NCBI GenBank assembly: GCA_041662585.1
Contig: JBAZSG010000001.1
Span: 66,381 to 130,380, forward strand
Source: Patescibacteria group bacterium
GTDB taxonomy: Bacteria; Patescibacteriota; Patescibacteriia; UBA1558; GWA2-36-10
Direction of reading: 5' to 3'
DNA: 64,000 bases
The notes below the pieces were generated by a model. The model made no database searches. It was not told where the DNA came from and saw nothing but the letters and a program-made list of their open reading frames with translations. The translations under genes were made by a program, and so were the position numbers. Every line of letters starts with the position of its first letter. Position 1 is the stretch's first letter. Below, piece after piece: positions 8,278 through 63,185 of this stretch.

Positions 8278-8637
8278 TTACAATGATTTTTCCTTGCATT
8301 TCATACAAGATGTGGCTGAAGGAAAGGCTTTTAAACGATCGGGATTGATGGGGCCACCACATTTTTCACAAATACCATACTTGCCTTCTTCAATTTTTTT
8401 CAAAGCTTTATTGGCATTATAAAGAGAAATTTCTAAGGTTTTCTCCATAGATAAATTTTTTTCAAACATAGCTACTTCAGCAGCATTTTCATCATCTTTA
8501 TCTCCCAAATCAACAAATTTGGCATCATAATCATTTTCTGCTACCTGATCAGTTGAACTCGCCAATTCTTTTTTTAATTCATCTCTTCTAGCCTCTAAGT
8601 CTGCTTTTATTTCTTCAATAAATTTTGTATTCATTTT
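8278..8637 (-). CDS. DksA/TraR-family C4 zinc-finger protein
   Basis: Coiled-coil followed by CEKCGGPI...SCMKCK. Start taken at the internal Met (MKMNTKF). Confidence 0.65.
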   Translation of the reverse strand, partial: KMNTKFIEEIKADLEARRDELKKELASSTDQVAENDYDAKFVDLGDKDDENAAEVAMFEKNLSMEKTLEISLYNANKALKKIEEGKYGICEKCGGPINPDRLKAFPSATSCMKCKEKSL

Positions 8638-32827: not shown

Positions 32828-33832
32828 ATGGACAAAGCAAAAACAGCCCGCCTTGAGGGCTTCGTACTCAAGGAAGCTGAAGATTTTTTTCGCAAGCAGG
32901 GTTTTATCCCTTTATTTCCACCCAAAATTGTCAGAGCCTCTGGCGCTTGTGAAAATATAAATACTCTTTTTGAAGTCAGTGTTGATAAAAATCATAAATG
33001 GTTTGATAGGAATTCTTACCTTTCACAAACTGGTCAGCTCTATCTTGAAGCTATGGTACCAGAACTCAAAAAAGTCTATTGTGTAGGACCATCATTTAGA
33101 GCTGAGCCCAAAATAGACTCCCGACATTTAACAGAATTTACTATGTTGGAAATTGAATTTGCTGGTAACTTTGAAGATCTCTTAGCCTATGAAGAAACAC
33201 TTATTCATCATGTAGCCAAAAAAGTAGTGCAACATCCCAAAGTCAAAGAGGATTTTGGCTTGAGTGACCAAGACATACAACGCTTAAATAAATGTCCAAA
33301 TAAATTCCAGCGCTTTACCTATGATCAGGCCATTACCAAGCTTCAAGAAATTGGTGAAGCTATAAAATGGGGAGATGACATAAATAGTAATAGAGAAAAA
33401 TTGCTTCTAGCTACGGTTGATAATCAACCGTTTTTTATTACCCACTATCCTGACCCGATGTATGAAGAACATAAAAATATTGAAGTAGAAAAATTCTTCA
33501 ATATGCTACCATCAAAAGACAATCCTGGTCGTGTACTCAGTTCTGATCTTATATTACCCTTTGGTGGTGAAGCGGTGGGAGCAGCTGCTCGTGTACATAT
33601 ATTGGATGAATTGGTAAAACGTTTAAAAAATTCCAAAATGTATAAACGCCTACAAGAAAAAGGCGGTGATATCAGTGATTTTGAATGGTATATAAATCAT
33701 ATAGAAAAAAATGGAGCTGTACCGCATGCTGGTTGTGGTTTTGGCATGTCCAGAATACTACAGTATATTAGTGGCAAAACAGACATTACTGAAGCAGTCA
33801 CTTTTCCTTCTAATAAAGGCCTTTTGATATAA
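32828..33832 (+). CDS. AsnRS-like class II catalytic core without an anticodon-binding domain (putative archaeal-type asparagine synthetase A-like paralog)
   Basis: 334 aa. QTGQLYLEA, motif 2 GPSFRAEPKIDSRHLTEFTMLEIE, motif 3 GCGFGMSRIL. No N-terminal OB fold. Confidence 0.65.
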   Translation: MDKAKTARLEGFVLKEAEDFFRKQGFIPLFPPKIVRASGACENINTLFEVSVDKNHKWFDRNSYLSQTGQLYLEAMVPELKKVYCVGPSFRAEPKIDSRHLTEFTMLEIEFAGNFEDLLAYEETLIHHVAKKVVQHPKVKEDFGLSDQDIQRLNKCPNKFQRFTYDQAITKLQEIGEAIKWGDDINSNREKLLLATVDNQPFFITHYPDPMYEEHKNIEVEKFFNMLPSKDNPGRVLSSDLILPFGGEAVGAAARVHILDELVKRLKNSKMYKRLQEKGGDISDFEWYINHIEKNGAVPHAGCGFGMSRILQYISGKTDITEAVTFPSNKGLLI

Positions 33833-46605: not shown

Positions 46606-47352
46606 TTAAATTTTAATAATTTCTAAAGATAAACTCTCTAGTGGCAGACCTTGATACTGTTTTTTGCTAATCTCTTTATTCTCACCCAAAATATTTACCT
46701 GTAAATCAGCTTGTTCAACTATGCTAATATAATCATCCTTTAAAAGCGCTCCACCAACACAACCAGCTATTAAGTCTTCGTTGTTTCTTTGGTCTTCGGA
46801 TAATTCTTCTAGTAAAACAATATCCGAAATATACATTTTGCCTCCGGTTTTTAAAACCCTATACGCTTCTTGAAATACTTTTAATTTGTCAGGTGCTAAG
46901 TTGATAACACAATTGCTGATTATAACATCTATAGAATTATCAGCTATGGGTAAATTTTCAATTTCTCCCCATCTAAACTCTGTATTTTTATAACTATATT
47001 TTTCAGCCAATGTTTTGGCTTTATCAATCATCTCCTCTGTCATATCTACCCCAATCACCTTGCCGGTATCGCCAACTTTTTTAGCCGCCAAAAAAGCATC
47101 AAAGCCAGCACCGCAACCCAAATCCAAAACAGTATCCCCAACTTTTATTTTACTAATAGCAATGGGATTGCCACAACCCAAACCAAGGTTGGCTTCTGGT
47201 GCAACCGATATCTGCTCGTCAGAATAACCAATACTTTTGGAAATTACTTCACTGTTATCTGAACTACAACTGCACTGACAACCACAGCTGAGCTTGGTGG
47301 CTATATTGGCATAACTTTTTTTAACAACTTGTTTTATTTTATCGGCTTTCAT
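46606..47352 (-). CDS. ArsM/UbiE-family SAM-dependent methyltransferase (arsenite methyltransferase-like)
   Basis: N-terminal Cys cluster, [11 protein letters not shown] motif I, further Cys at GCVGGA. Confidence 0.7.
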
Positions 47353-54058: not shown

Positions 54059-54326
54059 AATTTTATTTTAAATTTTAATATGTTTATTATACCACTTCTT
54101 TTTTCAAACAAAAAACCATTCCTTTTGAAATGATTCTTTAATGGGAATTATTTTCTAATTTTAGAATGTTGGAACTAGATATTGACAAAATGACTAATTT
54201 CTATTACTTTAATATATTCAAAAATCTAACTTTTGAATAAGTTCATTGACATCACCACCTGCCTAGAAATAGTGCAGATAAAACCACAAAGATCCGTAGT
54301 ATAGGATCAGTAAAAGGAGAAAGGCC

Positions 54327-55655
54327 ATGAAGGAAGTGTTTGTCACTGATCTAATCAACAACGGATCCCTCAATACCGAGGTCCAGTTGCAAGGTTGGAT
54401 CAAGAATCGCCGACACCACGGAAAACTCGTTTTTCTTGATGTCTGTGATTCCACTGGTATCATCCAGGTTGTCATAAACCGCGAAACAATTGATGAGGAC
54501 AGTTTCAATCTGGCAAAGAAAGCCAACCTCGAAACCTCTGTCAACATCAGGGGCACCCTGATCAACGGCAGTGGCAAGAGCCAACTCGACAGGGAGATCG
54601 TCGTACATGAGTTCAACATCATCGGAGAGGCAGAATCCATCTCGCCTGCTATCCGAGCGGATGATATTGACATCTCTAATCCTGGAAATGCTGATCACCT
54701 ACTGAAAAACCGCCACCTCTACATCCGCAATCCGCAGATCATCGCGGTCATGATTTTCAGGCACAGGATCATGCATTTCATCCGTGAGTGGTTCGTGAAG
54801 AACCGCTACATTGAAATCACAGCTCCGGTCCTGACCATGCTACCGCTCTACTCGGATGGCAGTGTCCTGCCTGTCGACATCAAAGGTGAGAAAGCCTACC
54901 TCACTCAGTGCGTGGGATTTTATTTGGAAGCTTCTGTTCATGCTCTGGAACGCGTCTACAACATGGGACCGTCTTTCAGAGGAGAAGAGAGCAGGAGTCT
55001 CCGACACCTGATGGAATACTGGCACATCAAAGGAGAGGCTGCCTTCGCCGATTTGGAAGATGCTATCCACACCGTGGAAAGCATCTTTAGTGAAACGGTG
55101 GAATTCTGCGAAAGGGAATGCCAAGATATCTTTGCTACCCTGGGCACTGAAATTCACACTGAAGGCAAGCTCATTCCATTCCCTCGCATCAGCTACCGCG
55201 AAGCCGGCGAGATGCTGAAAGCTGCCGGACTGCCTTTCGAGTTTGGTACTAGTCTTAGTACTACCGACGAGGAATTCCTGGCGGCGCAGTTCGACCGACC
55301 ATTCTGGGTTGTCGGCATTCCCCGCAAGATCGAACCATTCCCCTACGTCATTGACCCTGACGATCCTGAAATCACTAGAACAGCCGATCTCATCGCTTCC
55401 CGAGGATTCGGAGAGCTTCTCGGCGTCGCTGAGAAAATTTCCAACCTCGAAAGCCTTGACGAGAGACTCCGTGAAAAAGGCAAAGCTGGAGACGAAAACC
55501 ACGAATGGCTACGGGACATCAGAAAATACGGCTGTGTCCCGCACATTGGTTTTGGCATGGGTGTTGAACGTCTGCTCAGGTGGCTTCTAGACATCAGGCA
55601 CGTTCGTGATACTATGCCATTTCCACGAATCTTCCGTCGTAGAATTTACCCATAA
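54327..55655 (+). CDS. asnS: Asparaginyl-tRNA synthetase-like class IIb aaRS (about 50% GC, foreign composition)
   Basis: N-terminal OB-fold anticodon-binding domain, motif 2 GPSFRGEESRSLRHLMEYWHIKGE, motif 3 GFGMGVERLL. AAGGAG RBS 7 nt upstream. Confidence 0.8.
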   Translation: MKEVFVTDLINNGSLNTEVQLQGWIKNRRHHGKLVFLDVCDSTGIIQVVINRETIDEDSFNLAKKANLETSVNIRGTLINGSGKSQLDREIVVHEFNIIGEAESISPAIRADDIDISNPGNADHLLKNRHLYIRNPQIIAVMIFRHRIMHFIREWFVKNRYIEITAPVLTMLPLYSDGSVLPVDIKGEKAYLTQCVGFYLEASVHALERVYNMGPSFRGEESRSLRHLMEYWHIKGEAAFADLEDAIHTVESIFSETVEFCERECQDIFATLGTEIHTEGKLIPFPRISYREAGEMLKAAGLPFEFGTSLSTTDEEFLAAQFDRPFWVVGIPRKIEPFPYVIDPDDPEITRTADLIASRGFGELLGVAEKISNLESLDERLREKGKAGDENHEWLRDIRKYGCVPHIGFGMGVERLLRWLLDIRHVRDTMPFPRIFRRRIYP

Positions 55656-55676
55656 AAATAGAAAGAGGTAACAACC

Positions 55677-56984
55677 GTGAAAAGAATACTAATCGGCAAT
55701 CTCCAACAGATGCCTAGTGGCCAGATGGTCACCATCTGTGGCTGGTTGCATTCTCTGCGCAAGCAGAAGAATATGATCTTCGCAGTGGTCAGAGACTATA
55801 CTGGTCTTGTCCAGTTGTCCTACTTCCGCGGTGACAACCAGTTGAATATCGAGAAAGCCCTCGAACAGCTTACTGTCGAATCAGCAATCATCGTCACCGG
55901 TGAACTGCTGACCAATGAAGCGGTCAAGCTCGGTGGCAAGGAAATCAAGCCAGAGACAATCAAGATCGTCTCGCTGGCCGAATCTCCCCTGCCGCTTTCG
56001 GACAAATCGCCCTTGGACACTCGTCTGGACTGGCGTTTCCTCGACCTTCGCAAGGAGAAACAACAACTCATTATGCGAGTCCAGACTGTTGCCGAACATG
56101 CCATGCGCCTGTTCTGGCAACAAGAAGGATTCGTCGAGATACACTCTCCCAAACTGATGGGAAGCTCCAGCGAATCCGGCAGTGAACTGTTCCGTCTGCC
56201 CTACTTCGGCGGCGAAGCCTTCTTGGCCCAGTCACCTCAGTTTTTCAAGCAGATGGCTATGGCTGCCGGCCTAGAACGCGTTTTCGAGATTGGTCCGGTG
56301 TTCCGAGCCAACAAGTCCCACACTGTCCGCCATGACACGGAATTTACCAGCGTGGATGTCGAGTTCTCCTGGATCGAGTCCCATCACGAAGTGATGGAGC
56401 TCGAGGAAAGGTGGCTTTGTTTCGTCATTGCCTACATCAAGGACAAACTTGGTGAGCAGATCACCAATCTCTTCGGTGTTGAAGTGGTTGTTCCTCAACT
56501 TCCTTTCCCTAGAGTGACGATGGTCGAAGCTCAGAACATCGTCGCTCAACGAGGTCATATTTGCGAACGCAAAGATGACCTCGACCCCGAAGGCGAAAGG
56601 CAACTCAGCTCCTACATCATGGGGAAGTTCGGACACCAAATGGTGTTCGTAACTGACTACCCCACCGAAGTTAGACCTTTCTATCACATGAGGCCGACAC
56701 ACAACCCCGAACTGACCAACAGCTTCGACCTTCTGTGGAAGGGGCTCGAAGTCACCACTGGGGCTCAGCGAGAACATCGTTACGATGTCCTGCGTCAACA
56801 AGCCGTCGACAAGGGTCTCGAACTGGAACCCATCCGATTCTATCTGGACTTCTTCCGCTACGGCATGCCGCCGCACGGAGGATACGGTTTCGGTCTCACC
56901 CGTATGCTTATGGTACTCCTCGGACTATCCAATGTCCGCGAGGTCACCTACGTATATCGTGGTGTCAACAGACTGACTCCCTAA
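55677..56984 (+). CDS. aspS: Aspartyl-tRNA synthetase, archaeal/eukaryal short type (about 50% GC)
   Basis: OB fold, QSPQFFKQ AspRS signature, GPVFRANKSHTVRHDTEFT, GGYGFGLTRM. Confidence 0.8.
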   Translation: MKRILIGNLQQMPSGQMVTICGWLHSLRKQKNMIFAVVRDYTGLVQLSYFRGDNQLNIEKALEQLTVESAIIVTGELLTNEAVKLGGKEIKPETIKIVSLAESPLPLSDKSPLDTRLDWRFLDLRKEKQQLIMRVQTVAEHAMRLFWQQEGFVEIHSPKLMGSSSESGSELFRLPYFGGEAFLAQSPQFFKQMAMAAGLERVFEIGPVFRANKSHTVRHDTEFTSVDVEFSWIESHHEVMELEERWLCFVIAYIKDKLGEQITNLFGVEVVVPQLPFPRVTMVEAQNIVAQRGHICERKDDLDPEGERQLSSYIMGKFGHQMVFVTDYPTEVRPFYHMRPTHNPELTNSFDLLWKGLEVTTGAQREHRYDVLRQQAVDKGLELEPIRFYLDFFRYGMPPHGGYGFGLTRMLMVLLGLSNVREVTYVYRGVNRLTP

Positions 56985-57001
56985 CATAGGAGACACGACC
57001 C

Positions 57002-57046
57002 AAGAGGGGCCTAGCATCATTTGCCGGGCCCCTCTTCTTTTTTTAT
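57002..57046 (+). terminator. GC-rich intrinsic terminator after aspS
   Basis: aagaggggcc...ggcccctctt followed by a T-run. Confidence 0.75.
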
Positions 57047-57050
57047 AAAC

Positions 57051-57800
57051 TTATAATTCTGATATAGCGTGAAATTTATTTTCTTTTTTCAACTTATGTT
57101 TAAAGTATTTTCCATCTTTCCAATATATTTTGTATACATTAGCAAATTTCCTAGAACTAATAATTCTAAACATGCCATCAACTATTTCAATTGCGGCACA
57201 ATTTTCTGCAGCTAGAGCAAAACCAGAAATTTTTTTCATCCTTTCTTTTATATCAATTTGTCTATCCTTCTCAAAATCATAATGAGGAGAAAATAAAGCA
57301 TTGACTATACCTAAGCCCGAGACAGTTATATATGGGACTTTTTTATTAGTAAATTTTTTTGCATCACTCTGACCATATTTAAACCAACAAATAGCGCCAG
57401 CACTCAAACCAGAAAGAACTATCCCTTTACTATACGCTTCTATAAGTAGCCTATCTACTCCAAATTTTCGCCAAGTTTTCATCATCTTTAAAGTGTTGCC
57501 TCCTCCTACATATATAACGTCCGCATTGAGAATTTTATTTTTCAATTCTTTTTTTGTATATTTATTTTTTATTAAAAGCAAAGATGAAACTTTAGCTCCT
57601 AATTTTCCCCCAAAATAATTATTAATTACATCTATATACCCTTGAGCGTCTGAACTAGCAGTAGGAATAAAAAGCAAATTTGGACTCTTTTTGCCCGAGA
57701 GCTTGATAACCTCTTTATCTATTGCTAATGTCTCTATTTTATAGCCAGGTCGGCCTATTTCTCCACCACCGATAGCTATTATTTTTTTTGTCTTTTCCAT
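57051..57800 (-). CDS. Peptidase S51 family (dipeptidase E/cyanophycinase-like)
   Basis: IGGG...LFIPTAS...YVGGGNT...SGLSAGA. Host-like AT-rich composition. Confidence 0.7.
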   Translation of the reverse strand: MEKTKKIIAIGGGEIGRPGYKIETLAIDKEVIKLSGKKSPNLLFIPTASSDAQGYIDVINNYFGGKLGAKVSSLLLIKNKYTKKELKNKILNADVIYVGGGNTLKMMKTWRKFGVDRLLIEAYSKGIVLSGLSAGAICWFKYGQSDAKKFTNKKVPYITVSGLGIVNALFSPHYDFEKDRQIDIKERMKKISGFALAAENCAAIEIVDGMFRIISSRKFANVYKIYWKDGKYFKHKLKKENKFHAISEL

Positions 57801-57947
57801 AAAAAAATTATAGCAAAAAATCGCTATTATTCAAATATGTAACTATAAAGCCTAAAACTTTACAAAATGTAACAATCATGATAATTATAGTAATAATTAA
57901 AAAAATTTTAATGTACCTTGAAACCTTCATCATTTAGGAGGGATACC

Positions 57948-58970
57948 ATGTCTGAAGCCAGAGACAACATAGAGCACGGCCTCACTATCACCAAAAGAGA
58001 GCTGGCTAAACGTGATGAAATTCTCGCCTACCTGCCCGAAATCATCATAGACGCGCATGCTCACGCCGGACTTGAAGAGCAGGTCGGTCAGATTGACCCC
58101 AGAACCATGCAGCACATGATGACGACATTCCCCTTCTTCAGTCTAGAAGACTCGGCCCGAATGAACAGCCTATTCTTTACGGGAAAACTGGTGCATACCT
58201 TGCGCTTTGCCATCCCGTGGAGAGGCATAGATCATCGGTCTGCTAACCAGTACCTGCTGAAAAACAGTCCACCCTCAGATAGGGTTGCCCTTTGTGGCAT
58301 CCCTGATGACCCGGACTATACAATAAACCAATTGTGCAGAAAAAAATACTGCGCACTAAAAATGTATGTCAGATACTTTGAACCCCCGGCAACCAGAATA
58401 TACGAATTTTTTCTGCCTGAGATACTGGAAGAAGCGCAAGTTCTGGACATTCCAATAATACTGCATCTGCCGGCTATGATCACCAAGTGTATTGATGATT
58501 TGGATAGGTGCTTATCGGACTTTCCCAAGCTACGGGTAGTGCTAGCTCACCTGGGCCTACCTCATCTACCCATACCAGGATTAGCAGAAGCTTACGATCA
58601 ATTCGCGAGCTACCCTCAAGTGTCCATGGATACGGCAATGATCCCTTCCAAAGAAGTGGTCGCTCTGGCTCTAAAAGCTTTCGGCCACGATCGAATAATG
58701 TACGGTTCCGATCAACCTCTGAACATACTAAGGCAAGTCGTCTATCACCACCCTGAAAAGGGAGAAAGAATAGTGACGCATCGTCGCTACCACTGGAGTG
58801 ATTCACTAGAACACGAACAATACGGCCACCTGGCTGTTGGTGCCGTGCACTCGCATTGGCAATGCTTAGAATCTCTGCTGGAAGGAATCAAACAAATATT
58901 CCCCAGCTCCGAAGCTGAAGCGCGTCGCAATATATTCTGCGCTAATGCGCGGAAAATGTTCGACTTCTAA
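57948..58970 (+). CDS. Amidohydrolase-2 (TIM-barrel metal-dependent hydrolase) family protein (about 50% GC)
   Basis: IIDAHAHAG, VLAHLG, MYGSDQP motifs. AGGAGG RBS. Start taken at MSEARD. Confidence 0.7.
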   Translation: MSEARDNIEHGLTITKRELAKRDEILAYLPEIIIDAHAHAGLEEQVGQIDPRTMQHMMTTFPFFSLEDSARMNSLFFTGKLVHTLRFAIPWRGIDHRSANQYLLKNSPPSDRVALCGIPDDPDYTINQLCRKKYCALKMYVRYFEPPATRIYEFFLPEILEEAQVLDIPIILHLPAMITKCIDDLDRCLSDFPKLRVVLAHLGLPHLPIPGLAEAYDQFASYPQVSMDTAMIPSKEVVALALKAFGHDRIMYGSDQPLNILRQVVYHHPEKGERIVTHRRYHWSDSLEHEQYGHLAVGAVHSHWQCLESLLEGIKQIFPSSEAEARRNIFCANARKMFDF

Positions 58971-58982
58971 ACACGGTACGGT

Positions 58983-59023
58983 AAGGGGGATTCGCCTAAA
59001 AATGAACCCCCCTTGTTTTATTA
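58983..59023 (+). terminator. Intrinsic terminator after the amidohydrolase gene
   Basis: aaggggg...ccccctt plus a T-run. Confidence 0.7.
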
Positions 59024-59065
59024 TTAAAATTCTACAATTTTTTGTAACTCGTACTGTCAAAAAAA

Positions 59066-59101
59066 CAAAAACAAGTTTATAAAAATATAAACTTGTTTTT
59101 G
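59066..59101. repeat. Perfect 16-bp-arm palindrome (caaaaacaagtttata-aaaa-tataaacttgtttttg)
   Basis: Seen directly. It occupies the same position as the terminator hairpins of the other cassettes. Confidence 0.8.
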
Positions 59102-59133
59102 TTGGAATCCTCTGTGGAATAAATTCCGAACCT
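59102..59133 (-). repeat. Degenerate tRNA-His 3'-end copy (fragment E)
   Basis: The minus-strand reading AAGGTTCGGAATTTATTCCACAGAGGATTCCA aligns with the tRNA-His T-arm and acceptor 3' half. Confidence 0.5.
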
Positions 59134-59137
59134 TTTG

Positions 59138-59494
59138 TTATCGTTTGTTATAAAATAAATAAATTGGAAGTACTATATCAAATATGATTATTGCTAAAAA
59201 TATTTTGTTTTTTAAAATATTTTTTTTATACATCTTATAATATAATATTGCTATTATAACGAAAGAAACGATTAGTATGGGGATGCCCCAAATTAAATAT
59301 CCTAACCAAGCCCAAAATATGCCGTCATCAGAATTTCCTCTCAACATATTAAGAAGTCCTGCTAAAACGAAATACTTACCTACGAAATACGTACCTACAA
59401 TAACTGGCAGTACAAAAAGGATAAGAAGCCCCCGTAAACCATTAAATTTTTTTGCTGGTCCTAAATTTTTATCAACCTGATTTAATTCTTTCAT
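59138..59494 (-). CDS. Small polytopic membrane protein
   Basis: 3 TM. Confidence 0.45.
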   Translation of the reverse strand: MKELNQVDKNLGPAKKFNGLRGLLILFVLPVIVGTYFVGKYFVLAGLLNMLRGNSDDGIFWAWLGYLIWGIPILIVSFVIIAILYYKMYKKNILKNKIFLAIIIFDIVLPIYLFYNKR

Positions 59495-59503
59495 AATTTT
59501 ATT

Positions 59504-59767
59504 TTAATCTTCTAATAATTCTATTTGTTGGCATTGATTATTATCACAATAACAAGCAAAGGGCTGTGGTAAATATAAAATATCTATACCACCAATTTTT
59601 ATTGGTTTCCTACTCCAACATCCTGATAAAATACCTCCACTGATTTTTTTACAATCTAAATCCTGGCTACAATTTTTACTACCTCCAAAACTAAAAGATG
59701 TAAACAACCATATGTAAATAAATATGCCAATTAAAATTATGATTAAAATCAATAGAATCTTTTTCAT
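59504..59767 (-). CDS. Membrane-anchored 6-Cys domain protein (paralog of the N-domain of 36652..37302)
   Basis: FTSFSFGGSKNCSQDLDCKKISGGILSGCWSRKPIKIG...C.C.NNQC, about 65% identical to the 37-kb copy. Confidence 0.55.
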   Translation of the reverse strand: MKKILLILIIILIGIFIYIWLFTSFSFGGSKNCSQDLDCKKISGGILSGCWSRKPIKIGGIDILYLPQPFACYCDNNQCQQIELLED

Positions 59768-59826
59768 AATATAATTATACCACCTATTTTTAAAACAAAA
59801 AACTAGCTATTATTAGCTAATTCTCT

Positions 59827-59888
59827 GATGGATCCCTTATAGCCTGCCTGCCGGCAGGCAGGGACGAATTCAGAACCCTAGATTGGAG
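59827..59888 (-). repeat. Degenerate tRNA-His 3'-end copy (fragment C) interrupted by a 20-bp GC palindrome cctgcctgccggcaggcagg
   Basis: gatgg..ccctt...gaattcagaaccctagattgg, with the palindrome at 59843..59862. Confidence 0.6.
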
Positions 59889-59908
59889 CAAGTTGCAACA
59901 CAGTATTC

Positions 59909-60997
59909 CTAACTTATCTTTTTAACCACACCGTTATCAGCATCTACTTCTATTTTATCGCCATTCTTAAAAATTTTAGTAGCCTCTTTTGTATCAATTA
60001 TACAAGGAATTTTTAACTCACGAGATACTATAGCAGCATGAGAAAGCATGCCACCTTGATCTGCTACAATAGCTGAAGCTTTTTTACACAATGGTAGCCA
60101 ATCAGGACTGGTAGACTCGGCAATTAAAATATCACCTTTCTTCATTTGTTTATCCATCAATTTTACTTTTTTTATATCATAAAACATAGGAGCAATTATG
60201 GCTCTGCCAACTACTTTGCCCTTAAAAGCTGTTCTGCCTTTTAATATTGTTGTTTTGGAAGCCAAGGTGAAGTTTTTATAAAGTTCTAAAGACTGTTTAT
60301 AAGAAAAAGTTTTGATACTATTATTTTGATTTATGGCGCTATAACATTTTTTTCTTTGTTCAATTAAATTTTTAGGAATTTTTTTACCATCAAAAATATT
60401 TAATATTTCATTTGAATATAGGAATCTTCCATCATAATCATATTTCAAAAAATATTTCAATAAATTTTCAAAAACACCCCCTTTAAAAAAATAGTTGTTT
60501 AGTAATTCTCTGCCGTGAAATTTAAACTTGGCTGCTTGAAGTAGATTATTTTTAACTGTTTTAGCTTTATTTTTATCTAAAGAATCTAAATCTATTTCTT
60601 GATAAGGAAATTCGACAAAACCATAATAATACCAAAACTGGGCTAAAAAATTTCTAATTTTTATAAATTCTCTCCTGTTTAATATTTCGGGTGTTTTGTT
60701 ATATTTAGATATTATTTCTTTATTTGCTTTATTAACATAATCTTTAAAATCTTTTAAATATCTTTTAAATCTTGCTTCATTTCCATACAAACACAACCCT
60801 TCTTTAGAAAAATACTTCAAATTATTTTTACTAATAAAAGTATAATAATCTTTATCTTTATGTATAACTAACATCCCCTTGCCCAAAGAACTTGTTAATA
60901 AAAACTCACTATGAAGACAGGTAATAATACCCTTAGTAACAAAAAATCTCACAAAATTATTTGGTGTTATCTTGATTAATTCTATATCCTTTTTCAT
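59909..60997 (-). CDS. Protein with a C-terminal PEP-utilising-enzyme mobile (phosphohistidine swivel) domain and an uncharacterised N-domain
   Basis: C-terminal GGMLSHAAIVSRELKIPCIID...VDADNGVVKKIS. Confidence 0.65.
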   Translation of the reverse strand: MKKDIELIKITPNNFVRFFVTKGIITCLHSEFLLTSSLGKGMLVIHKDKDYYTFISKNNLKYFSKEGLCLYGNEARFKRYLKDFKDYVNKANKEIISKYNKTPEILNRREFIKIRNFLAQFWYYYGFVEFPYQEIDLDSLDKNKAKTVKNNLLQAAKFKFHGRELLNNYFFKGGVFENLLKYFLKYDYDGRFLYSNEILNIFDGKKIPKNLIEQRKKCYSAINQNNSIKTFSYKQSLELYKNFTLASKTTILKGRTAFKGKVVGRAIIAPMFYDIKKVKLMDKQMKKGDILIAESTSPDWLPLCKKASAIVADQGGMLSHAAIVSRELKIPCIIDTKEATKIFKNGDKIEVDADNGVVKKIS

Positions 60998-61077
60998 TAT
61001 TTTAATTCAAATTTTAATATATTAATTATACCACTTATTTTTAAAACAAAAAACGAGCTAAAATTAGCTCACTTTTT

Positions 61078-61120
61078 GATGGGGTCCCTTGTGGGAGGAA
61101 TTCCGAACCCTAGACTGGTC
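61078..61120 (-). repeat. Degenerate tRNA-His 3'-end copy (fragment A)
   Basis: The minus-strand reading TAGGGTTCGGAATTCCTCCCACAAGGGACCCCATC compares with the tRNA-His sequence GAGGGTTCAATTCCCTCTGGGCACCCCATC. Confidence 0.65.
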
Positions 61121-61138
61121 AAAATTACAAAATAGTTA

Positions 61139-61357
61139 TTAGCTTAATTTTTTAACTTTTAAATAATCATATATAGCCGCTACTGTAAAAATTATCTGTA
61201 AAATTATAAAAATTATATCATCAATATAAATACTATACATTTCTAAACATAAACCTCCTAAAATATAATATATATCTTGGCTCTTTCTTCTTTTTGTTAT
61301 GATACCAATAGAAATTAGTAGAATGCCTAAGGCGCCGATGATTTTAAATATGTCCAT
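61139..61357 (-). CDS. Small membrane protein (72 aa)
   Basis: Two TM. Preceded by TTGACC-17-TATAAT with the ATG 6 nt after the -10 (leaderless). Confidence 0.45.
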   Translation of the reverse strand: MDIFKIIGALGILLISIGIITKRRKSQDIYYILGGLCLEMYSIYIDDIIFIILQIIFTVAAIYDYLKVKKLS

Positions 61358-61363
61358 AAAATA

Positions 61364-61392
61364 ATTATAATTCTATTCCCATTTTGGGTCAA
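61364..61392 (-). promoter_or_regulatory. Near-consensus sigma-70 promoter (TTGACC-17-TATAAT) for the leaderless small gene
   Basis: The minus strand reads tttgacc caaaatgggaatagaat tataat. Confidence 0.55.
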
Positions 61393-61424
61393 ACAAAAAA
61401 CAAGCTAAGATTAGCTCACTTTTT

Positions 61425-61470
61425 GATGGAGTCCCTTGTGGGATGAATTCAGAACCCTAGATTGGGGTAA
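61425..61470 (-). repeat. Degenerate tRNA-His 3'-end copy (fragment B)
   Basis: gatggagtcccttgtgggatgaattcagaaccctagattgggg. Confidence 0.65.
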
Positions 61471-61487
61471 ATTACAATATAATATTC

Positions 61488-62936
61488 CTAATTTAACTTT
61501 TTAACTACACCATTATCAGCGTCTACTTCTACTTTATCACCATCTTTTAATACTTGTGTGGCTATTTTGGTGCCAATAATACAAGGTATGCCTAATTCAC
61601 GTGATACTATAGCAGCGTGACAAGTAATTCCTCCTTCATCAGTTATAATAGCAGCTGCTTTTTTCATAGCTGGAGCCATCTCTGGACGAGTCATAGAAGA
61701 AACTAATATATCGCCCTCATCCATATTGATCATATCGTGAATTTTTAAAATAATTTTAACAACACCCTGAGCTTTCCCTTTAGAAGCAACCACTCCTTTT
61801 AACTCTTCTGTTACGCCTTTTTTATTTTGATAAAAATCCAAAAGTTCTTTAACAGTTTTACCAGATATAATTTCATAAGAATTTGGAGTCTGAATACAAA
61901 CACACATTTCTTTTCTGCCTTCTAACTCTTCTTTATCAATTTTTTTAGCTAAAACTTTACGAAATTCTGAATAAACTGAGTAGGTTAATAAATCAAAAGG
62001 GACTTTTGTGCGTTTTTCAACCTCGCGTAAAAACTTAAATTGATAATAATTAGCCATTAAAACATACTTTTTTCTAGTGTCCTGAATACCAAAAAATTCA
62101 TCCATCATATCTATCAGCGAAAGATTCCACTTAGATAGTTTTAATTCTTTAATTAACCCTTCTCTTTCCTTTAGAATGCTTTCTCTAGTTTTAGATGGTG
62201 TGTGATCTATGAGTTTTTTAAAATCCTGATAAATTATTTTGGAAAAATCATCAACTGTTAGATAATTTCCTTTAGCATAATTATTTTGAATATAGAAATA
62301 CTTAGCTGAATGCTGTTCTAATTTATCTAGTGGTATTTTTTTGCCGTCTTTTAAGTATTGTAGTAATTTTTCTCTATCCACCTGTTCTTCTTCAATGAAA
62401 GAAATGTGTTTGGTGGTTATTAATTTAGGAAATATCTCATTAAATCTGTTTCCTAGTATTTTTTCAAACTCAGGAATAATATAACGGTCAGCGTGCATAG
62501 ATACCGCATCACCCAAAGTCATAAAATAAGTAAATTGTTCTAAATATGCCTCGTAAAAACTATCATATAATAATGCTAGTTCTTCATCATTTAATTTTTC
62601 TAAATTTATCTTATCTACTTTATCAATAACTGATTCAAAATCATTTATTTTCTTATACCAATCGTTTTGTATTTTTTTTAAATAATTTTTATCTTTTTTT
62701 AAATTATCTAAAAATAAATTACGTACCCTATCTAAGTCATTATCATTCCAATACCAGTGAACATAATCATTAGTAACAAAAAAGAGAGTTATGGTACTAG
62801 AATCACCATATATCTTTTTCATAGGAAAACCAGTTTGTCCTACTGGAAAGAAAGTGTGTAATACACCGTGAAAGCCTTTATATGTCCAGGTAGATTGGTC
62901 TATCTTATACTTACTTATAATTTCTTCTACTTTCAT
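61488..62936 (-). CDS. Paralogous protein with a C-terminal PEP-utilising-enzyme mobile domain (482 aa)
   Basis: C-terminal GGITCHAAIVSRELGIPCIIG...VDADNGVVKKLN. Preceded by an extended -10 ttggtataat 9 nt from the ATG. Confidence 0.65.
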   Translation of the reverse strand: MKVEEIISKYKIDQSTWTYKGFHGVLHTFFPVGQTGFPMKKIYGDSSTITLFFVTNDYVHWYWNDNDLDRVRNLFLDNLKKDKNYLKKIQNDWYKKINDFESVIDKVDKINLEKLNDEELALLYDSFYEAYLEQFTYFMTLGDAVSMHADRYIIPEFEKILGNRFNEIFPKLITTKHISFIEEEQVDREKLLQYLKDGKKIPLDKLEQHSAKYFYIQNNYAKGNYLTVDDFSKIIYQDFKKLIDHTPSKTRESILKEREGLIKELKLSKWNLSLIDMMDEFFGIQDTRKKYVLMANYYQFKFLREVEKRTKVPFDLLTYSVYSEFRKVLAKKIDKEELEGRKEMCVCIQTPNSYEIISGKTVKELLDFYQNKKGVTEELKGVVASKGKAQGVVKIILKIHDMINMDEGDILVSSMTRPEMAPAMKKAAAIITDEGGITCHAAIVSRELGIPCIIGTKIATQVLKDGDKVEVDADNGVVKKLN

Positions 62937-62984
62937 AAATAAATTATACCAAATTATATTTTAGTTCGATACCCCATTAGGGCG

Positions 62985-63013
62985 TATCAAAAAATAAGCT
63001 AACCTTAGCTTAT
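62985..63013 (-). terminator. Hairpin ataagcta/tagcttat + T-run immediately 3' of tRNA-His
   Basis: 8-bp stem flanked by T-runs on both strands. Confidence 0.55.
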
Positions 63014-63020
63014 TTTTTGA

Positions 63021-63096
63021 TGGGGTGCCCAGAGGGAATTGAACCCTCATTAGCGGTACCACAAACCGCTGTGTTAACCATTACACCATGGGCACC
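63021..63096 (-). tRNA. tRNA-His (anticodon GTG) with encoded G-1 and CCA
   Basis: Hand-folded cloverleaf. G-1:C73 pair, D-stem GTGT/ACAC, anticodon loop TTGTGGT, T-arm GAGGG-TTCAATT-CCCTC, 3' CCA. Confidence 0.88.
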
Positions 63097-63110
63097 ATAT
63101 GAATAAATAT

Positions 63111-63185
63111 GGTGCTCCCAGTAGGAATCGAACCTACATCTACGGCTTAGAAGGCCGCTGTTCTATCCGTTGAACTATAGGAGCA
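63111..63185 (-). tRNA. tRNA-Arg (anticodon TCT) with encoded CCA
   Basis: Acceptor GCTCCTA/TGGGAGC, anticodon loop CTTCTAA, T-loop TTCGATT. Confidence 0.88.

Follow-up and report, generated by a model that had tools for sequence, protein, structure and literature searches.

The stretch analysed here, 64,000 nucleotides of contig JBAZSG010000001.1 of a Patescibacteria group bacterium (hereafter the window), contains two GC-rich segments set in AT-rich DNA. The first holds genes for an asparaginyl-tRNA synthetase (AsnRS, asnS) and an aspartyl-tRNA synthetase (AspRS, aspS), and the second holds a gene for a hydrolase of the Amidohydro_2 family. Judged from their homologues, the first segment is the asnS-aspS operon usual for Patescibacteria, and the second an Amidohydro_2 gene linked to it. 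The explanation that we favour, and to which we give an even chance of being right, is that these genes were transferred within the phylum from a GC-richer lineage, that they were subsequently exchanged among relatives as part of a larger module, and that their loss of G+C is still ongoing.

A sliding profile gave G+C contents of 0.46–0.55 at ~54.35–57.05 kb and of 0.44–0.52 at ~57.95–59.0 kb, against 0.22–0.35 around both segments, and showed no further GC-rich segment of this kind elsewhere in the window. The background for comparison was a set of 58 open reading frames (ORFs), the longest non-overlapping ones of the window and thus a crude gene calling, in which G+C at third codon positions (GC3) is 0.236 ± 0.044 with a maximum of 0.379. 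Relative to this set, GC3 is elevated with z = 6–9 in asnS (54327–55655, plus strand; GC 0.50, GC3 0.57), aspS (55677–56984, plus strand; GC 0.53, GC3 0.63) and the Amidohydro_2 gene (57948–58970, plus strand; GC 0.49, GC3 0.51). First codon positions of these genes are also raised in G+C (z ~2.5), and second positions are nearly unchanged (z ~1). GC3 in the window is bimodal, with 58 ORFs at or below 0.38, three at or above 0.51, and no gradation between them. The change in codon usage is global: from host to island genes, TTC rises from 0.07 to 0.75, TAC from 0.09 to 0.78 and ATC from 0.12 to 0.60, and TTA falls from 0.35 to 0.02. The encoded proteins change with it, lysine falling from 9.6% to 4.3% and arginine rising from 3.7% to 7.1%. 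A gene of the peptidase S51 family, here called pepE (57051–57800, minus strand), sits between the GC-rich segments and has a host-like GC3 of 0.22.

Segment borders were taken from likelihood change points. These fall at 54248, where a TTGACA hexamer resembling a -35 box lies 79 bp before the ATG of asnS; at 57035, the end of the aspS terminator hairpin; at 57937, 11 bp ahead of the amidohydrolase ATG; and at 59013, the end of a second hairpin 3′ of the amidohydrolase gene. Because the change points coincide with a -35-like box and with terminator ends, every GC-rich block is one full transcription unit, from promoter to terminator, non-coding ends included. The composition island announced in a preliminary description of this DNA is therefore real, as the G+C profile, the GC3 of individual genes, codon usage and the change points all agree. 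The long shadow ORFs reported on the opposite strand of the GC-rich segments are present as well, and so are GC-rich terminators at both segment ends, in the form of hairpins followed by T runs, the second of them weaker. The description had also placed the switch in composition within ~25 bp of each start codon, which is correct for the amidohydrolase gene (11 bp) and not for asnS (79 bp).

The island might in principle be a chimera of assembly or binning, in which reads of a GC-rich organism were joined into an AT-rich contig. The switch in composition is indeed abrupt, and metagenome assemblers can cross organisms at conserved genes. Such a chimera would however require four precise intergenic joins, given that AT-rich DNA flanks the segments and also separates them, and that same arrangement bears out the earlier view that the island is not a contaminating contig end. 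Moreover, there are no mismatches between the window and either a 702-kb MEGAHIT contig from ENA (L001, ERZ27249449 k141_305749) or a Logan assembly (L002), exact public matches that span 19.7 and 11.6 kb of the window, respectively; cluster records show two NCBI protein accessions. Diverged relatives from other samples alternate GC-rich and AT-rich genes likewise (L164/L171 from SRR28219341, L170 from JGI 3300038436, and L168/L169, with the P0122 contig from ERZ1426840), and a similar block pattern is found in the unrelated loci L097, L047 and L018. With identical independent assemblies and a layout common to diverged relatives, an assembly chimera is ruled out for practical purposes, and we allow it next to no chance.

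By the source names of its exact proteins, the host is a patescibacterium. Among the best 120 homologues of AsnRS, AspRS and PepE, the named sequences are Patescibacteria, and outside the window's clade the best match reaches at most 60% identity for AsnRS and at most 65% for AspRS. A cross-phylum or archaeal donor was considered and rejected, as the best 120 matches look patescibacterial and archaeal loci are just 32–35% identical. In 160 loci that were collected with AsnRS and then searched with four window proteins, the asnS-aspS tandem is near-universal, often with the S51 peptidase gene, the amidohydrolase gene or both nearby. The combination of asnS-aspS with pepE and/or Amidohydro_2 is thus a conserved patescibacterial neighbourhood. 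The P0002 contig (75% AsnRS identity) repeats the layout of the window, with asnS-aspS on the plus strand, S51 on the minus strand and a methyltransferase-amidohydrolase pair on the plus strand; its asnS is probably of the GC type too, with a GC3 of ~0.50 estimated indirectly by a predictor based on amino-acid composition (R = 0.82). The cluster also occurs at native composition in GC-rich genomes such as L003 and L012, in the latter as a contiguous asnS-aspS-methyltransferase-amidohydrolase series, and an arrangement like that of L003 or L012 is a plausible donor arrangement. At the level of the phylum, the three GC-rich genes are not foreign; it is their composition that is. The term foreign cargo, applied to them at first sight, is thus apt for their atypical composition but not for the genes, since the closest homologues are all patescibacterial and the neighbourhood is conserved.

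Close relatives, found by a search with PepE and by cluster look-up, differ from the window in a mosaic manner. L164 features the same islands, plus a GC-rich methyltransferase gene and a GC-rich ORF of 639 amino acids (aa); its aa identities to the window are 95% for PepE, 98% for AsnRS, 95–96% for AspRS and 91% for the amidohydrolase. L170 (PepE 88%, AspRS 95% over the C-terminal 177 aa, amidohydrolase 86%) has a GC-rich methyltransferase-amidohydrolase pair, an AT-rich pepE and an aspS fragment with a GC3 of 0.72. In the P0122 lineage (PepE 81%, AsnRS 91%, AspRS 93%), aspS has a GC3 of 0.76 in L168/L169. In L165–167, PepE is 81% identical, asnS-aspS and the amidohydrolase gene are absent beside pepE, and the flanking genes are others. 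The event is neither unique nor demonstrably as recent as originally envisaged: island genes rich in G+C occur in at least three other lineages of the clade, namely aspS in L164, L170 and L168/L169 and the genes for amidohydrolase and methyltransferase in L164 and L170, and the discordance recurs across the phylum.

A module of ~5 kb (window 54148–59105) is 91–96% identical to L164, the AT-rich pepE included, which lies inside a continuous block of 94.4% nucleotide identity. The last position homologous to L164 is 59105, and it coincides exactly with the tRNA-His 3′ end of that relative. Divergence from L164 at four-fold degenerate sites is 0.11 for asnS, 0.12 for aspS, 0.13 for pepE and 0.28 for the amidohydrolase gene; for orf130 and the N-terminus of rpiB it is at least 1.0, with 58–67% aa identity. 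The difference in divergence between module and adjacent genes is significant (Fisher p = 8.5e-8), with a flank side made up of ~30 four-fold sites and one tRNA. That tRNA-His(GTG), compared between the window (63021–63184 region) and L164 (7474–7676), shows 15 differences in 75 positions, of which some seem to be paired changes in stems, and the tRNA-Arg(TCT) beside it is 100% identical, which we take as another sign of mosaic ancestry at this locus. Relative to L170, four-fold divergence is 0.28 for aspS, 0.64 for pepE and 0.56 for the amidohydrolase gene (aspS versus pepE, p = 0.013), which points to an aspS younger than pepE and to later exchange of the cassette. Because the similarity of the module is far above that of its surroundings and its parts differ in age, the module appears to have been exchanged by recombination, in parts of unequal age. 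The initial view of pepE as a host-like gene between the two segments agrees with its GC3, but the gene lies within the exchanged module of high identity and is not simply resident.

The composition of the island is also changing in a given direction. GC3 of aspS is 0.76 in L168, 0.72 in L170, 0.69 in L164 and 0.63 in the window. Changes on the branch leading to the window were polarised with L168 as outgroup for aspS, and with protein outgroups for AsnRS. On this branch, aspS experienced 30 synonymous changes from GC to AT and 2 from AT to GC, along with 11 and 2 non-synonymous ones, respectively; the corresponding numbers are 18 and 5 for synonymous changes in the amidohydrolase gene and 4 and 0 for non-synonymous changes in AsnRS, and changes in pepE are balanced. 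Since changes toward AT outnumber the reverse by 30 to 2, the island appears to be decaying toward host composition. The GC loss amounts to ~0.11 per GC third position on the window branch and is compatible with neutral AT-biased mutation. The L164 branch is near balance (9 versus 6), but parallel changes in the only outgroup probably exaggerate this.

The history that we propose would begin with the entry of a GC-type asnS-aspS operon and a methyltransferase-amidohydrolase pair into a lineage of ~30% GC from a GC-richer patescibacterium, possibly as a single contiguous cluster of the L012 kind. The incoming genes would most likely have replaced resident copies, i.e. by xenologous replacement. 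AT-rich genes would have been inserted later, and the methyltransferase gene would have been lost in the window. The ~5-kb module including pepE would have been inherited, and recombinationally exchanged, among related AT-rich lineages, and the imported genes would be losing G+C under the AT-biased mutation of the host (amelioration). That the transfer ran in this direction and from such a source, that genes were replaced rather than added, and that their products serve as the working AsnRS and AspRS of the cell, we infer. Xenologous replacement, already considered in the preliminary description, is the mechanism best supported by the decay from GC to AT, by the similarity of the module and by the occurrence of pepE without these neighbours in L165–167, although its donor was not found.

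Expression-linked codon bias was examined as a source of the high GC3 and rejected for this genome. Host genes that are usually highly expressed are AT-rich at third positions (GC3 of 0.25 for S15, 0.20 for ClpP, 0.21 for PNPase and 0.22 for RNase Y), and across loci C-ending and G-ending codons both rise. Selection on synonymous sites alone is disfavoured too, as the amino-acid composition of AsnRS follows the GC3 of its own gene (t ~-8) and not that of the host (t ~-0.5) in 98 loci. For these reasons, and because the GC-rich blocks include promoter-proximal and terminator DNA, import is favoured over codon selection.

A survey across the phylum set the GC3 of each gene against the remaining ORFs of its locus, once loci with AsnRS at least 95% identical had been removed. 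Mean GC3 excess is +0.086 for asnS (97 loci, 29% of them at +0.15 or more) and +0.156 for aspS in tandem (80 loci, 47%), compared with +0.04 for the amidohydrolase gene (31 loci, 16%), -0.07 for pepE (22 loci, 0%) and -0.03 for a second AspRS paralogue (21 loci, 5%). This paralogue provides an internal control, as not every synthetase gene is GC-elevated. An excess of at least 0.20 was found for asnS in 21 of 97 loci versus 2.3% of 1107 background ORFs (odds ratio 10.8, p = 2e-11), and in AT-rich hosts for asnS in 12 of 44 versus 9 of 511 background ORFs. When loci are grouped into clades at 70% identity, asnS reaches +0.20 in 8 of 49 and -0.15 in none. The G+C profiles of L097 and L047 display sharp blocks like those of the window, and in L047 asnS-aspS, the methyltransferase gene and the amidohydrolase gene are separate GC-rich blocks with AT-rich ORFs between them. 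In one clade of AsnRS (78–95% identical), GC3 is ~0.6 throughout, with host background GC3 ranging from 0.28 to 0.58. The single case in the window fits a known kind of event, and the recurrent, one-sided discordance of the operon is the part that deserves attention. No paper describing recurrent asnS-aspS GC discordance was found in the literature, and a study of horizontal gene transfer in groundwater Patescibacteria does not mention synthetases (PMC12455944).

Several observations weigh against transfer followed by exchange and decay. The flanks on which the contrast in divergence depends are thin. In three lineages, the divergence of AsnRS keeps a fixed ratio to that of PepE (2.3:4.8 and 9:19 percent), which is what vertical descent would produce. 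No integrase or transposase was found in or beside the module, and no relative of it among viral contigs, on which count a phage or virus was rejected as the vector. Searches for homologues returned patescibacterial matches and identified no donor. The island survives where four-fold divergence of pepE among lineages reaches 0.64–0.76, a distance at which little of the GC excess should be left under neutral decay if the cassette had not been exchanged again, as the younger ages of aspS suggest it was. The discordance is one-sided, with asnS at -0.15 or below in 1 locus. Moreover, pepE beside the pair is AT-richer than its surroundings even in GC-rich hosts (L010, L114, L017, L049; for example 0.34 versus a background of 0.53, and 0.24 versus 0.46; regression slope on host GC3 0.56), the mirror image of the synthetase anomaly. 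One-sided direction, gene specificity and the AT-richness of pepE are not predicted by random transfer, and leave either directional transfer from GC-rich to AT-rich lineages or a local process that favours GC (compare PMC4450053).

A process of the latter kind is central to the alternative that the genes were inherited vertically, with their high G+C actively maintained by a local force as the genome otherwise drifted to AT, an alternative that we regard as possible but doubtful. The force could be GC-biased gene conversion at a recombination hotspot centred on asnS-aspS, an operon of high conservation, or selection on the genes. It would explain why these particular genes stand out in a large number of independent clades, nearly always by a positive excess, as in the 21 of 97 loci above, why the order aspS > asnS ≥ amidohydrolase > background ≥ pepE returns in the unrelated loci L047, L013, L063 and L008, and why one AsnRS clade retains its GC3 of ~0.6 over so wide a range of hosts. 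The slower four-fold divergence of aspS than of pepE, in a segment that shows recombination, is also in line with it, as is the higher GC3 of recombining bacterial genes (Lassalle et al. 2015, PMC4450053). On the other hand, the decay on the window branch is approximately neutral at 30 versus 2, and changes from AT to GC arise in the island at a rate that does not exceed that of pepE; the GC3 values of the window fall into two groups with no gradient; third positions are AT-rich in other genes that are conserved or highly expressed; the second AspRS paralogue, often adjacent, is not elevated (mean -0.03, n = 21); and pepE stays AT-rich inside the recombining block. The effects of gene conversion reported in bacteria are in addition a matter of a few GC3 points, not of 30–40. 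It is tempting to speculate, if only tentatively, that the asnS-aspS operon, often together with the methyltransferase and amidohydrolase genes and perhaps with proS/hisS, is a phylum-wide compositional exception that is kept at, or reset to, high G+C by a directional process. Candidates for such a process are GC-biased conversion at a hotspot of cross-species recombination, and recurrent one-way rescue, in which degraded AT-type alleles would be replaced by alleles from the larger populations of GC-richer lineages. On this view the window would exemplify a general rule, so far undescribed, by which genomes of ultra-small bacteria evolve, and not a one-off transfer.

The synthetase genes could also represent an auxiliary second set, with native AT-rich asnS/aspS genes or a GatCAB route elsewhere in the genome. 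Its purpose could be, for instance, resistance to a natural inhibitor of AspRS/AsnRS, with pepE, the methyltransferase and the amidohydrolase as helpers, and inhibitor-resistance-driven transfer of synthetase genes is well documented for other synthetases. A second archaeal-type AspRS (~50% identity, GC3 host-like or lower) does occur within 10 kb of the pair in 21 deduplicated loci, a third class IIb paralogue of native composition is encoded in the window at 32828–33832, and the module moves between genomes. We nevertheless consider an auxiliary set unlikely, as there is no second full-length asnS or aspS within the window, a protein search was empty at 76–90% identity and gave no second copy attributable to the window's contig, and the AsnRS family in question is the sole AsnRS type in the surveyed loci, where it is near-universal. 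No gatCAB genes were seen in the window either. The module proteins matched none of the defence or resistance families, and an annotation of this type was discarded after PADLOC gave no match to them, its lone match being a generic methyltransferase in L164.

Transfer within the phylum followed by exchange and decay, the account that we favour, has both likenesses to and differences from known systems. In the amelioration that Lawrence and Ochman reportedly described in 1997, imported genes of atypical composition decay toward that of the host. The atypical G+C, codon and amino-acid signature confined to discrete transcription units, the directional substitutions toward the host (30 versus 2) and the variable presence among relatives are all reminiscent of it. 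Unlike in that case, the window genes encode essential translation enzymes of the type usual in the host's phylum, in their usual neighbourhood, there are no mobility genes, and many lineages are discordant, nearly always toward higher G+C. Horizontal transfer and xenologous replacement are well-known properties of aminoacyl-tRNA synthetase genes, and the work of Woese, Olsen, Ibba and Söll in 2000 is said to be an example. Class II synthetase genes were seemingly exchanged between lineages here as well, but within a phylum, as seen from composition and mosaic divergence without a clear cross-phylum jump in a tree, and with two synthetases moving jointly as an operon. Spearman correlations of identity patterns are 0.20–0.25 between the synthetases and pepE and 0.51 between AsnRS and AspRS, values in which compositional attraction is a confounding factor.

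Thermus thermophilus and Deinococcus radiodurans are bacteria with both an AsnRS and an archaeal-type AspRS2 (PMC4206432, PMC1635274, PMC2330236). Similarly, a short AspRS of ~435 aa coexists with AsnRS in the window, where in contrast both genes belong to a single operon and the cell may have no AspRS besides the archaeal-type one. With GC-biased conversion (PMC4450053) the island shares a raised GC3 in a recombining segment and an excess that is positive only; it differs in the size of the effect (0.3–0.4 GC3 here), in its sharp operon borders, in the AT-rich gene inside the recombining block and in the net loss of GC on the window branch. As in genomic islands, composition is atypical with sharp borders, the similarity of the module is above that of its flanks (in a small flank sample), and relatives without the genes beside pepE exist (L165–167); as for mobility, neither an integrase or transposase nor att-type repeats were found, beyond a 9-nt repeat in L171.

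If the genes were indeed imported, two enzymes essential for translation apparently came in from a relative by replacement, and their composition still marks them as foreign. The window would thereby offer a dated and measurable example of imported genes losing their composition in a reduced genome of the episymbiont type. The operon is a compositional outlier in about one-fifth of the sampled patescibacterial loci, nearly always in the GC-rich direction. Should the pattern prove to be genome-wide, this would imply an unusually active and directional flow of core-translation genes among lineages of the Candidate Phyla Radiation (CPR), or a local GC-favouring force in genomes that AT-biased mutation otherwise dominates. 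Either option is relevant to the ways in which minimal genomes avoid mutational decay, and to the reliability of composition-based binning and of the detection of horizontal gene transfer for metagenome-assembled CPR genomes.

Matches to domains and models agree with the proposal that the pair consists of an AsnRS-type enzyme and an AspRS of the short archaeal type, both of them complete class IIb enzymes. The window AsnRS (442 aa) contains an OB anticodon-binding domain (PF01336) and a class II core (PF00152) according to Pfam. It scores below the asnS cut-offs of NCBIfam (313.7 versus 414 bits for NF003037 and 288.7 versus 342.6 for TIGR00457); AsnRS models outscore AspRS and LysRS models, and the best solved structure is the AsnRS of P. 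horikoshii (1x54, 278 bits; best AspRS 175 bits). With a score under the equivalog cut-off, the asnS product is therefore likely to be a divergent type of AsnRS, of class IIb. Its class II motifs align with those of 1x54, the SQSAQLYLE of 1x54 corresponding to TQCVGFYLE in the window, and T193–G197, Y199 and E201 (7 of the 9 residues of this stretch) are invariant in 15 patescibacterial homologues. In the slightly longer LTQCVGFYLE (window 54900–54926, AsnRS residues 192–201), only F198 and L200 vary among the 15 relatives. AspRS enzymes carry QSPQ where patescibacterial AsnRS has LTQCVGFYLE and P. horikoshii has LSQSAQLYLE, and this stretch may be the reason why patescibacterial AsnRS score under the NCBI asnS cut-offs.

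The AspRS (435 aa from a GTG start at 55677) is of the short archaeal type, without the bacterial insertion domain. It scores above the NCBIfam cut-offs (479.2 versus 353 bits for NF003483, 406.9 versus 368.4 for TIGR00458), and the name of the matched NCBIfam model is aspartate--tRNA(Asn) ligase. The best solved structures are two entries for the T. kodakarensis enzyme, 3nel (348.5 bits, end to end) and 1b8a (343.4 bits); AspRS2 of T. thermophilus (1n9w) gives 256 bits, and the QSPQ motif is found in the window enzyme. The public call of aspS starts at an ATG at 55710 and gives 424 aa, but the GTG at 55677 is supported as the more probable start, because homologues are 434–435 aa long and an AAGAGG ribosome-binding site lies upstream. 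A His and a Pro in place of Trp26 and Lys85 of the T. kodakarensis enzyme presumably mark a non-discriminating AspRS. In the window enzyme, His25 aligns with Trp26 (non-discriminating-like) and Lys84 with Lys85 (discriminating-like), a mixed signal.

The identification of an S51 peptidase next to a TIM-barrel amidohydrolase is likewise upheld by Pfam. The product of pepE, a gene convergent with aspS, has 249 aa and matches peptidase S51 (PF03575) with 143 bits. It remains under the equivalog cut-offs of NCBIfam for both PepE (36.1 versus 156) and cyanophycinase (40.2 versus 126.6), and is probably best described as an S51 family member with PepE/cyanophycinase specificity undefined. The amidohydrolase (340 aa) is a metal-dependent hydrolase matching Amidohydro_2 (PF04909) with 70.5 bits versus a gathering threshold of 26.4. 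No NCBIfam family matches it at cut-off, the best being L-fucono-1,5-lactonase with E = 0.003, and a sequence search found no solved homologue.

The region upstream of asnS (54148–54326, plus strand) is part of the module, as homology to L164 starts at 54148. It includes a putative promoter, with TTGACA at 54246–54251 and a -10-like AATAGT at 54268–54273, and a predicted ribosome-binding site AAGGAG at 54314–54319, all on the plus strand. The terminator of the asnS-aspS operon (57002–57046, plus strand; inverted repeat I25) consists of the stem AAGAGGGGCC/GGGCCCCTCTT followed by a T run, with a folding energy of -26.1 kcal/mol (z = -4.6). The terminator-like hairpin 3′ of the amidohydrolase gene (58975–59022, plus strand), AAGGGGG...CCCCCTT and then a T run, is weaker than that of the operon (-16.1 kcal/mol, z = -1.6). 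A simple terminator scan misses both hairpins, as their loops are longer than 8 nt.

The right flank of the module (59023–59132) features a perfect 18-nt palindrome (59064–59103) and a degenerate remnant resembling the 3′ half of a tRNA (59096–59132). The tRNA-His(GTG) and tRNA-Arg(TCT) genes (63021–63184, minus strand) are separated from the amidohydrolase gene by 3.9 kb of AT-rich genes in the window, and directly adjoin it in L164 and L170. As for repeats, L171 has no more than a weak 9-nt copy of the tRNA-His 3′ end, TGGGGT(C/G)(A/C)C, and the window has the degenerate tRNA-like remnants. A tRNA-linked integrative element was rejected as a general account: the adjacency is restricted to the window's clade, the repeats are short or degenerate, and there is no integrase.

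The intervening AT-rich DNA (59096–63037) is absent in L164 and L170 and encodes proteins of 118 aa, 87 aa, 362 aa (PEP-utilizer), 72 aa and 482 aa (PEP-utilizer), the two PEP-utilizer genes being paralogues. It contains a repeat unit, composed of a remnant like a tRNA 3′ half, a hairpin and a TGGTATAAT promoter, at 59096–59132, 59761–59845, 61012–61134, 61359–61481 and 62958–63037. The whole looks as if genes had accreted, or been duplicated in tandem, at the 3′ end of tRNA-His.

In L171, a contig of L164, the GC-rich 639-aa ORF upstream of asnS (region 1–2620) has no Pfam match. It is bracketed by copies of the left flank (1–98 versus 2381–2479, 82–84%) and of the right flank (2265–2324 versus 8332–8392, 78–92%), and the module of L171 lies between TGGGGTCAC and the true tRNA-His 3′ end TGGGGTGCC (region 8286–8490). 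This arrangement looks like one of tandem cassettes with homologous ends, and no integrase was seen in it.

The GC-rich gene for a SAM-dependent methyltransferase overlaps the start of the amidohydrolase gene in L164 (8820–9851) and lies just upstream of it in L170 (2445–3425), as likewise in the gene list of the P0002 contig. In the window it is cleanly absent, with ~60 bp in its place (57888–57947). Other methyltransferase families adjoin aspS in L006, L047 and L012, and are GC-elevated in discordant loci. A PCMT-like methyltransferase gene (protein-L-isoaspartate O-methyltransferase family) is found in the window at 46606–47352 (minus strand), 10 kb from pepE, and directly upstream of pepE in the relative L165 (1179–1928). 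Together with a peptidase family specific for Asp and synthetases for Asp and Asn, this hints at an aspartate/isoaspartate theme in the neighbourhood.

The third class IIb paralogue of the window (32828–33832, plus strand; 334 aa) has a catalytic core without an anticodon-binding domain. It is nearest to the AsnRS catalytic domain (220 bits with the NCBIfam asnS model, 158 with P. horikoshii AsnRS), ~30% identical to the two full-length enzymes and of native AT-rich composition (GC3 0.27), and none of the 170 further loci showed a copy. Candidate identities are an asparagine synthetase resembling AsnA and some other AsnRS-derived enzyme. The second archaeal-type AspRS paralogue mentioned above, ~50% identical, lies at most 10 kb from the pair in many Patescibacteria (e.g. 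L136 1726–3015, L099–L109, L039 8069–9343, L126, L128 and L046), with a GC3 that is host-like or lower, as in L046 (0.52 versus a background of 0.81). Further GC3-rich outliers were noted in AT-rich loci: an archaeal-type ProRS with a radical-SAM gene in L018 (3068–5836), HisRS in L074 (8208–9470), a SufS-like aminotransferase and its neighbour in L021 (10826–12552), and HflX in L073 (8680–9945). Of ~13 such outliers, 2 are further class II synthetases.

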